DNA from: Armatimonadota bacterium
GTDB taxonomy: Bacteria; Armatimonadota; SYMT01
Assembly: GCA_041690135.1 (NCBI GenBank)
Contig: JAWLHY010000010.1
Location: 160,001-224,000, forward strand
DNA: 64,000 nucleotides
Reading direction: 5' to 3'
The position numbers and the translations under genes were made by a program. Below the pieces are notes generated by a model. It worked only from the letters and a program-made list of their open reading frames with translations, was not told the origin of the DNA and did no database searches. Of this stretch, positions 30,325 to 31,602 are shown piece after piece; the first letter of the stretch is position 1; each line of letters starts with the position of its first letter.

Positions 30325-31602
30325 TCAGCCGCGTACCTGTCCTTCCCCGTAGACAATCCACTTCCAGGTGGTCAAGGCCCGGAGTCCGATGGGCCCCCGG
30401 CGGTGGAGCTTCTGGGTGCTGATGCCTAATTCGGCGCCCAGGCCGAACTCAAAGCCGTCCGTAAAGCGCGTAGAAGCGTTGACGTAAACGGCCGCGGCAT
30501 CCACCTGCTGGCAGAACCGCTTACCGGCGAAATAGTCCTGGGTGACGATCGCTTCGCTGTGCTGGGTCCCATACCGGGCGATGTGCGCCATCGCTTCGTC
30601 CAGCCCGTCCACGACCCGCACAGCCAGGATCAGGGCCTGGTAGGGAACGCACCAGTCCTCTTCCGTTGCGGGACGGACTCTCGAAAGGATTTCCTGCGTC
30701 TGCTCGCACCCCCGCAGCTCCACCCCCGCCGCTTGCATGCGCAGCCCCAGGTCCGGCAAGAACTGTTTGGCGATGGGGGCATCGATCAGGAGTGTTTCCA
30801 CGGCGTTGGCCATACCCGGCCGTTGGACCTTCGCGTTGAACGCGATATCGGCCGCCATGTCCAACTTCGCGGTGCGTTCGACGAAGATGTGACAGTTGCC
30901 CGGCCCCGTTTCTAGAGTGGGCACCGTGGCCGTACTGCAAACCCGGCGGATCAGTTCCTGACTCCCGCGGGGGATGAGGAGATCGATCGATTCCCGCAGG
31001 TGCATCATGCGCTCCAACGCCCGCGGATCGGTGGAGCGAATCCGCTGCACTGCCCCATCGGGAACCCCCTGGCGGGCCATGGCCCTACCGATAACTTGCA
31101 GGATCACCTGGTTCGATTGGGCATCATCGGCACTGCCCAGGAATACCACGGCGTTGCCGGCCTTCAGGCAAAGACTAACGGCATCCACGGTGGTATTGGG
31201 GCGGCCTTCCGTAACGATGCCGACTACCCCCAGGGGCATCCGCACTTCCTGAAGGATGAGGCCGTTCGGGCGCCGCGATCCTCGGAGGACCTCCCCTACC
31301 GGATCCGGCGCCGAGGCGACTTCATGCACTCCCTGGGCGATGGCGCCCAGGCGAGGGTAGGTGAGGATGAGGCGATCGATAATCGCCTCGGGCAAGCGCT
31401 TCCGCTCGGCCGCCTGTACGTCGCACTCGTTAGCCTCGAGAATGCGGTCGGCCTCGTTGAGCAACGAATCGGCGATATCGTGAAGCGCGTCGTTCTTCAC
31501 ACCGGTCGGGAGTGCGGCTATCAGGGGCGCGATTTGTCTCGCGCGCTTTCCAGCCTCCTCAACCAGAACTTCCGGGCCCGGCTCGGGTCCGGGTGAACTC
31601 AT
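30325..31602 (-). CDS. proA: ProA (gamma-glutamyl phosphate reductase) homologue with degenerate active site
   Basis: ProA fold motifs ([43 protein letters not shown]) present, but the catalytic CNA motif reads [11 protein letters not shown]. Confidence 0.88.
   Translation of the reverse strand: [425 protein letters not shown]

Follow-up and report, generated by a model that had tools for sequence, protein, structure and literature searches.

An intact proA ortholog without the catalytic cysteine is a probable pseudoenzyme that occurs next to the gene of a novel acidic protein in a family of Armatimonadota

Why should a bacterium maintain an intact proA gene whose product has lost the catalytic cysteine of gamma-glutamyl phosphate reductase? 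This question is raised by a gene lying in a 64,000-nt stretch of DNA (hereafter the window) from an Armatimonadota bacterium whose genome (G000; 9.1 Mb in 25 contigs, 97% complete) belongs to a family represented in our survey by six further assemblies (G001 to G006). We refer to the Cys-less proA ortholog of the window and its clade as proA*, and to its product as ProA*. With a probability that we put at roughly two in three, the comparisons reported here suggest that ProA* is no longer a gamma-glutamyl phosphate reductase and that selection keeps it as a non-catalytic protein, the reduction being performed by a divergent paralog, ProA2, and the product of the gene immediately upstream, OrfX, acting as its partner. 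A preliminary description of the locus had also proposed a maintained non-catalytic ProA, without two facts that change the picture: the existence of the ProA2 gene elsewhere in the genome and the upstream partner OrfX. The gene and its critical codon are located in the window as follows.

30325..31602, minus strand: proA*, probable pseudoenzyme of 425 aa; intact open reading frame (ORF) with its ATG at 31602, identified by NF001221, by the solved structure 1o20 and by its AlphaFold2 (AF2) model and Foldseek.
30808..30810, minus strand: GCC codon encoding Ala265, at the position of the catalytic Cys; direct reading and alignment to 1o20, 4ghk and 8zok.

By its overall sequence ProA* belongs to the ProA family: it scores 533.6 bits against the NCBIfam model NF001221 (cut-off 289) and 446.8 bits against TIGR00407 (cut-off 317.45), its closest solved relative being the Thermotoga maritima ProA 1o20 (HMMER alignment, E 8.7e-118). 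The preliminary description had read codon 30810-30808 as GCC, giving Ala at the catalytic position, and both direct reading and the alignments bear this out, since Ala265 falls opposite the Cys of RPGTCNAAEKLL (T. maritima 1o20), RYGTCNTMETLL (Burkholderia 4ghk) and RPSTCNTVETLL (Escherichia coli 8zok), within the motifs RPGTCNA, RYGTCNT and RPSTCNT, respectively. Cys255 is the catalytic residue of 1O20 according to PMC4271523, and PMC8963878 describes how C598 of Drosophila P5CS attacks gamma-glutamyl phosphate to form a thioacyl enzyme. ProA* thus lacks the catalytic Cys of gamma-glutamyl phosphate reductase (EC 1.2.1.41); the same alignment column holds C in 114 of 114 canonical representatives, and V, G, A, S, P or R in the Cys-less clade. 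All the other motif changes that had been claimed were equally seen against the solved ProAs, namely TEGRPNTT, an altered ILRGGSEA, PRGG to PRGS, DW.TEYL to DWCVPYQ and HARGP to HRRGP; PRGS alone is not diagnostic, being carried by 19 of 150 representative ProAs. The frame is intact and GNCH, HSEAI and NASTRFTDG...GISTQKLH are kept, also as previously described.

Is the loss a peculiarity of one assembly? We searched 41 Armatimonadota genomes and aligned 27 ProA-grade matches. The Cys is absent in all seven genomes of the window's own family, with A, V, V, P, P, V and V in its place, and present as VCNA or TCNA in all 20 ProAs of the phylum's other families. Of 8000 scored database proteins, the best 120 divide into 48 with the Cys and 72 without it, and the first 63 matches (57-96% identity) all belong to the latter. 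The Cys-less proteins fall into three subclades: an HRRGP type, which comprises 51 database matches and the window protein, a 'PRGD' type, and a type that keeps HARGP and has Gly in place of the Cys. In a quick maximum-likelihood tree these three subclades and one Cys-containing sequence (P0064) form one clade with 99% support in the Shimodaira-Hasegawa-like approximate likelihood-ratio test (SH-aLRT), nested among Armatimonadota ProAs, and the HRRGP clade is supported at 100%; the tree contains an internal polytomy compatible with single or multiple losses of the Cys. What the relatives share is therefore the loss and not the Ala of the window, the residue varying among them, and the possibility left by the preliminary description that the substitutions are unique to this assembly is contradicted. 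An assembly or sequencing error, or a strain-private mutation, can practically be dismissed, since seven genomes obtained independently, and 72 database proteins of several origins, show the same loss: the observed loss is not an assembly error and is not private to one genome.

The Cys is also missing from a few ProAs elsewhere. When one representative was taken from each of 150 clusters at 50% identity, 140 had the Cys, one had a gap and nine lacked it, only one of the nine representing the window's own clade. The eight outside it (P0141, P0227, P0228, P0241, P0243, P0253, P0260 and P0264) carry S, A or P at the Cys position, and several of them also show degraded cofactor motifs. As judged from these alignments, cysteine loss may have happened repeatedly in ProA.

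We then ask whether the Cys-less copies are decaying or maintained. All copies of proA* are full-length open frames without stops, at 60-70% identity across genera. For each of the 15 pairs that six genomes of the family form, the ratio of non-synonymous to synonymous substitution rates (dN/dS; Nei-Gojobori NG86, 418 codons) lay within 0.11-0.38, with dS at 0.7-2.3, near saturation, which would if anything inflate dN/dS. A set of 114 diverse representative ProAs with the Cys served to define universal sites, the 64 positions whose conservation reaches 90% or more; 53 of these persist in the HRRGP clade, so that the purifying selection about which the preliminary description had asked is evident at this locus. 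Among the 11 sites that are relaxed, C265 falls from 100% in active ProAs to complete absence in the clade, E320 from 100% to 63% (Pro in the window), H348 from 99% to 58% and R77 from 100% to 75%. An entropy comparison of the clade with the 48 Cys-containing relatives, at equal depth (mean pairwise identity 0.68 vs 0.69), located the excess variability at residues 151-165 (+0.91 bits per site), 181-195, 211-225 and 301-330 and at position 265; elsewhere the Cys-less clade is as conserved as these relatives or more so, and at 106-120, 241-255 and 286-300 it is more constrained than active ProAs. On these alignments the pattern of change is far beyond chance, with relaxation centred on the predicted NADPH-binding domain and the catalytic loop, and both comparisons uphold the earlier statement that the losses affect catalytic and cofactor residues rather than random ones.

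Within the relaxed domain, R155 and R193 occur in all 48 Cys-containing relatives and E159 in 47 of them; the window has L, D and P at positions 155, 159 and 193, which are relaxed clade-wide. We presume that these residues contact NADPH, and ProA* has thus lost the presumed NADPH-binding residues of ProA. The substrate side behaves differently. R379 and D382 do not vary in any of the 43 clade sequences and match R712 and D715 of Drosophila P5CS by a constant offset of 333 from C598, residues that bind gamma-glutamyl phosphate according to PMC11061531; the substrate-binding Arg/Asp pair is therefore kept. In addition, the clade has acquired invariant residues that are absent or rare in active ProAs, i.e. 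R107, E119, E242, R288 and R401, the latter being the extra Arg of HRRGP. ProA* hence presents the features of a pseudoenzyme, with the fold kept, the catalytic residue lost clade-wide and purifying selection acting on the apparently dead copy; clade-wide Cys loss, dN/dS and the concentration of the losses make the maintained and almost certainly non-catalytic ProA of the preliminary description the best supported part of it.

The preliminary description had raised the question whether the Cys of GNCH or that of the WC pair reaches the active site. The WC Cys is absent from the 96%-identical P0001, and both G005 and P0021 have another residue for the Cys of GNCH; together with Ser267 they were ruled out as substitute nucleophiles, none of them being conserved in the clade. 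The freedom of residue 265 to vary across the clade (V, G, A, S, P, R) further argues that no substitute took over.

The AF2 model of ProA* has a mean predicted local distance difference test score (pLDDT) of 81.2, and its best Foldseek matches are gamma-glutamyl phosphate reductase structures (1o20, E 1.8e-45; TM 0.74-0.76). The active-site loop and residues 376-403 are modelled too poorly to place the direction of Arg401. This latter segment, the NASTRFTDG... stretch, is the most conserved part of the protein and yet the worst modelled (pLDDT 31-46); it may form a mobile active-site lid, or the poor model may reflect an alignment without variation in that region.

If ProA* is not an enzyme, what accompanies it? 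The genes around it in the window are the following.

29252..29593, minus strand: putative rsfS, downstream of nadD; the name is presumptive; conserved there in G001, G004 and G005.
29714..30361, minus strand: nadD, directly downstream of proA*; NF000840, 263.1 bits; probable start ATG at 30307.
31599..32321, minus strand: orfX, encoding a 240-aa acidic protein with no Pfam or NCBIfam match; its stop overlaps the proA* start (ATGA).
32330..33415, minus strand: proB, glutamate 5-kinase with a PUA domain; TIGR01027, 407.8 bits (cut-off 186).
33419..34693, minus strand: obg GTPase gene, upstream of proB; recognised by sequence appearance and by a GTP1_OBG Pfam match on its Phenylobacterium counterpart (L084).

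The orfX gene starts 8 nt past the proB stop (32330) and its TGA shares the ATGA with the proA* ATG; orfX and proA* are probably translationally coupled, as this overlap suggests. OrfX homologues were found in 8 of the 41 Armatimonadota genomes, including all seven with ProA*, and not in the other 33 genomes searched, among them 20 of 20 with a canonical ProA. The gene is directly upstream of proA* in six genomes (the window's, G001, G002, G003, G005 and G006); in G004 it follows proB, the contig ending inside orfX. Metagenomic loci of the Gly/HARGP subclade repeat the arrangement, as proB-orfX-proA* (L143) or orfX-proA*-nadD (L142): among 80 fetched metagenome loci, OrfX is encoded upstream in 2 of 2 Cys-less vs 0 of 68 Cys-containing cases, and in 0 of 10 loci whose Cys motif was unreadable by pattern. 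A protein collection yielded 62 OrfX homologues, none with a Pfam domain; for 25 of the 62 the length of the longest contig equals that of a Cys-less ProA match, a hint that the two may lie on the same contigs. An eighth homologue, with 37% identity, is encoded in G007, a genome of the sister family (88% complete), at L061 (G007:C127) positions 1465-2229 on the minus strand, with no adjoining proA.

OrfX itself matched no model of Pfam or NCBIfam. Its AF2 model (pLDDT 90.6; predicted template modelling score 0.84) consists of an N-domain and a C-domain joined by a disordered acidic linker. Residues 1-110 superpose on the core-binding domains of tyrosine recombinases, with VIA Z of 12.2 (3nrw), 10.5 (lambda Int) and 9.5 (XerD); the root-mean-square deviation on 3nrw is 2.3 over 100 residues, which identifies the core-binding (SAM-like) fold. 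Residues 159-241 superpose on the OB folds of RPA, PriB and SSB with VIA Z of 5.1-5.8, a range that possibly reflects a common arrangement only. A Foldseek search of OrfX against the Protein Data Bank (PDB) gave no match at E<=0.001, core-binding domains appearing with a probability of about 1 and E>0.001, and in the ESM Atlas only unnamed clusters were retrieved, all with scores below 0.9. OrfX therefore resembles tyrosine-recombinase core-binding domains and OB-fold single-stranded DNA-binding proteins in the folds of its two halves, and differs from tyrosine recombinases in lacking their catalytic domain and any sequence-level family match and in being strongly acidic. Its net charge is about -27 in the window (about -11 in the N-domain), the family median is -23, and every domain is negative, which argues against direct binding to nucleic acids. 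Two roles were hence set aside: direct binding to DNA or other nucleic acids, suggested by the folds and disfavoured by the acidity, and that of a tyrosine recombinase or integrase, for OrfX ends after the OB-like domain at residue 240, with no catalytic domain and no basic surface.

Where, then, might the reductase activity reside? The preliminary description had advised a search for a second Cys-containing proA, and such a gene exists, divergent and below the family cut-offs: TIGR00407 matches two places in G000, the window gene and a 500-aa ORF on contig 9 (121.3 bits, below the cut-off).

G000 contig 9, 107899-109398 (L032:1426-2928), minus strand: ProA2, 500 aa; TIGR00407, NF001221 and PDB matches.

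ProA2 carries the motifs FESRPNV and DRKVCNTLN, with the Cys-Asn pair kept, has an N-terminal extension of roughly 60 residues and finds its best PDB matches in ProAs (E about 1e-29); among the universal ProA sites it retains C265, N266, E320, E132, R77, D382 and E391. ProA2 homologues (E<=1e-183) occur in 13 of the 41 Armatimonadota genomes, and their distribution mirrors that of ProA: they are present in 7 of 7 genomes with ProA*, in 6 of 6 with no other ProA and in 0 of 20 with a canonical ProA. Considering the 33 ProB-positive genomes, 20 have a canonical ProA, seven have ProA* and ProA2, five have ProA2 only and one (G007) has neither. Five of the six genomes with ProA2 only have ProB and ProC, the sixth being 80% complete; no ProA or ProA2 was found in G007 (88% complete) despite its ProB and ProC. 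The family extends, at 67-78% identity, across Pseudomonas, Phenylobacterium and other Caulobacteraceae, Janthinobacterium, Capsulimonas and actinobacterial metagenome-assembled genomes (MAGs), an identity across distant taxa that suggests strong constraint and/or horizontal transfer. ProA2 lies in an obg-proB-ProA2-nadD locus in Phenylobacterium terrae, and it is the sole TIGR00407 match in this species, in Phenylobacterium sp. Root1290 and in a Capsulimonas MAG. There are thus genomes in which ProA2 fills the place of proA, either as the sole ProA-like gene next to ProB and ProC in the gene complement or at the proA locus itself. NCBI records label these proteins merely as 'aldehyde dehydrogenase family protein'. 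Its distribution and synteny make ProA2 a probable true reductase and the likely supplier of this activity in G000.

Neighbouring genes add little to this picture: around ProA2 in 12 Armatimonadota loci (76 of the 146 candidate frames, compared with Pfam) and in the G000 locus we found no recurring neighbour and nothing proline-related, so that Phenylobacterium provides the one informative context. In G000, contig 9 carries at about 110090-113670 (L033:12092-15666) genes for a DinB-family protein, an imine reductase/RedAm-like protein, a short-chain dehydrogenase/reductase (SDR) and an arylamine N-acetyltransferase, on the same strand as ProA2 and upstream of it, a set that is not common to the other genomes examined. 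A glutaminase gene lies directly upstream of ProA2 in a Pseudomonas fluorescens isolate, and two genes upstream, with a chemoreceptor gene in between, in a Janthinobacterium.

Taken together, we propose that ProA2, as a divergent Cys-containing enzyme of the ProA type, would supply the reductase step for proline synthesis, and that its takeover would have made the old proA redundant. The redundant gene would have been lost in sister lineages and kept in the window's clade for a new job, which ProA* and OrfX would carry out jointly. Our best guess is that ProA* may bind gamma-glutamyl phosphate, glutamate semialdehyde or a similar compound in the old substrate pocket, being then the ligand-binding half of a ProA*-OrfX sensor or adaptor pair and not an enzyme. 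It is tempting to go one step further and speculate on a two-protein module in which the retired enzyme senses gamma-glutamyl phosphate or glutamate semialdehyde and, through its acidic partner, couples glutamate/proline status to another process; OrfX might then be a nucleic-acid mimic, and the coupled process might concern the neighbouring growth-state genes obg, nadD and rsfS. This elaboration is tentative, and we regard it as a possibility clearly less probable than its negation.

Several observations weigh against the proposal that a retired ProA* works with OrfX whilst ProA2 reduces. ProA2 scores only 151.7 bits against NF001221 (cut-off 289), keeps 29 of 65 universal sites and lacks the His of HSE; besides, it occurs together with a canonical ProA in Pseudomonas migulae and in a Janthinobacterium, where it may therefore have another substrate. 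G000 contains ProC (292.1 bits) and also a gene of the OCD/mu-crystallin family, so that proline may come from ornithine and its supply need not depend on proA*; no ornithine aminotransferase reached the cut-off in this genome. The link between ProA* and OrfX consists of adjacency and co-occurrence, and the presence in G007 of OrfX with no ProA* found indicates that OrfX may not strictly need it. As for the loss of cofactor binding, some members of the clade keep most NADPH motifs (e.g. P0004 and P0008), and cofactor binding may thus persist in part of the clade. As for the residue assignments, R155, E159 and E320 are presumably K192, E195 and E399 of aldehyde dehydrogenase (ALDH), and R193 would be the adenine-contacting R525 of Drosophila P5CS by offset arithmetic that is off by one or two. 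Finally, the ProA* model falls below pLDDT 50 at 262-264 and 376-403, the very segments of main interest.

How do other explanations compare with a ProA* retained as a non-catalytic partner of OrfX? In the preliminary description, the non-catalytic ProA was suggested to be a scaffold or regulator of ProB, or else to bind the gamma-glutamyl phosphate that ProB makes and divert it. The invariant Arg/Asp pair that binds this compound would suit such a role, and so would the position of proB, which closely precedes orfX-proA* in four cases (the window, G004, G005 and the metagenome locus L143). In G001, G002, G003 and G006, i.e. in 4 of the 7 family genomes, proB is nevertheless on a different contig, and the invariable neighbour of proA* is orfX, not proB. 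Moreover, the dependence of E. coli ProB on association with ProA, which had been taken as a premise, is contradicted by PMC11573504, in which changes that should preclude ProB-ProA contact leave E. coli proline synthesis unharmed; according to its section headings, a physical interaction lacks evidence and no channelling complex is predicted by AlphaFold 3. Unlinked proB genes and these findings make the scaffold the weaker rival, and we consider it unlikely.

The proposal that ProA* still is an enzyme, using thioester-free chemistry (acyl-phosphate transfer or hydrolysis) or acting on another substrate, possibly with OrfX as a subunit, appears to us improbable to a similar degree. It can draw on the 53 of 64 universal sites that are kept, including the RPN Asn region, N266, R379, D382 and E391, on the new invariants R107, E119 and R401, which could build a new site, and on the members that keep most NADPH motifs. 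Position 265, on the contrary, is occupied by V in 34, G in 6, A in 4, S in 2, P in 2 and R in 1 (residues listed for 52 sequences), no new conserved Cys, Ser or His appears near it, and E320 and H348, 100% and 99% conserved in active ProAs, are relaxed. To our knowledge, every characterised acyl-phosphate-reducing or ALDH-type enzyme uses the Cys. That proA* might be a decaying relic, its frame held open only so that translation drives expression of the downstream nadD-rsfS, is a notion to which we give very little credence: the tight spacing and overlaps with orfX upstream and nadD downstream would fit it, and dN/dS of 0.11-0.38, residue-specific conservation with the gain of new invariants and full-length frames at 60-70% identity across genera speak against it.

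In the wider organisation of the locus, the nadD gene follows proA* also in G001, G002, G003, G004 and G005, and the order orfX-proA*-nadD is repeated in the family genomes, continuing with rsfS and a tetratricopeptide repeat (TPR)-like gene where the DNA extends far enough; the NF000840 match begins at residue 18 of the nadD ORF. Upstream, proB precedes orfX-proA* in G000, G004 and G005, and the C-terminus of the window's obg ORF matches the G004 sequence just upstream of proB. We take proA* to be the ancestral proA ortholog, still at the ancestral obg-proB-...-proA-nadD locus. Beyond this core, the TPR-like protein is encoded in the window at 28541-29218 (minus strand; 225 aa, with a C-terminal membrane segment) and has a homologue after rsfS in G001, G004 and G005; the window ORF at 27348-28025 (minus strand) resembles, by eye only, a sporulation-type SigH sigma factor; and in G005 (L056:881-1501) an extra 206-aa ORF, which by eye resembles a 3'-5' exonuclease, lies between proB and orfX.

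Among known proteins, ProA (NF001221, TIGR00407; 1O20, 4GHK, 8ZOK) is the obvious relative, which ProA* resembles in its full-length match above the cut-offs, its predicted fold, its proB-nadD locus and its substrate Arg/Asp, and from which it departs in lacking the catalytic Cys, in the lost invariants of the NADPH domain, in the change from HARGP to HRRGP and in the extra gene between proB and proA. The closest analogue in the same superfamily is ALDH16A1, a human pseudoenzyme of the ALDH superfamily that has lost the catalytic triad and is thought, according to PMC10650815, to act via protein partners. Both keep the fold and lack the catalytic residue; unlike ProA*, ALDH16A1 is not ProA-like and its whole triad is gone, whereas ProA* lost only the Cys and the cofactor contacts, conserves the substrate pocket, and is a bacterial protein next to whose gene a dedicated partner is encoded. 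A ligand-binding scaffold is likewise reused, with the chemistry left to a paralog, in 'trigger enzymes' and in regulatory subunits that descend from inactive enzyme paralogs, HisZ for example; the partner of ProA*, unlike in those systems, belongs to no known family. Our literature searches turned up neither a ProA clade that lacks the Cys nor OrfX. From what its sequence and that of its relatives indicate, ProA* would be the first pseudoenzyme to come from the proline pathway, and one that has a novel partner dedicated to it.

Proline biosynthesis is commonly deduced from the presence of ProA, which counts as a dependable marker. In this clade an 'equivalog' match with a full score is almost certainly inactive, and automatic annotation or metabolic reconstruction would therefore credit the wrong gene. 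Furthermore, the locus may offer a datable case of enzyme retirement, in which a paralog takes over, the old gene is lost or reused, and the reused copy is accompanied throughout by a particular new gene; the purpose for which inactive metabolic enzymes persist would become directly testable with two small soluble proteins. If true, the ProA*-OrfX module would be an example of paralog displacement freeing an old enzyme for signalling in these Armatimonadota, and the first pseudoenzyme derived from the proline pathway.

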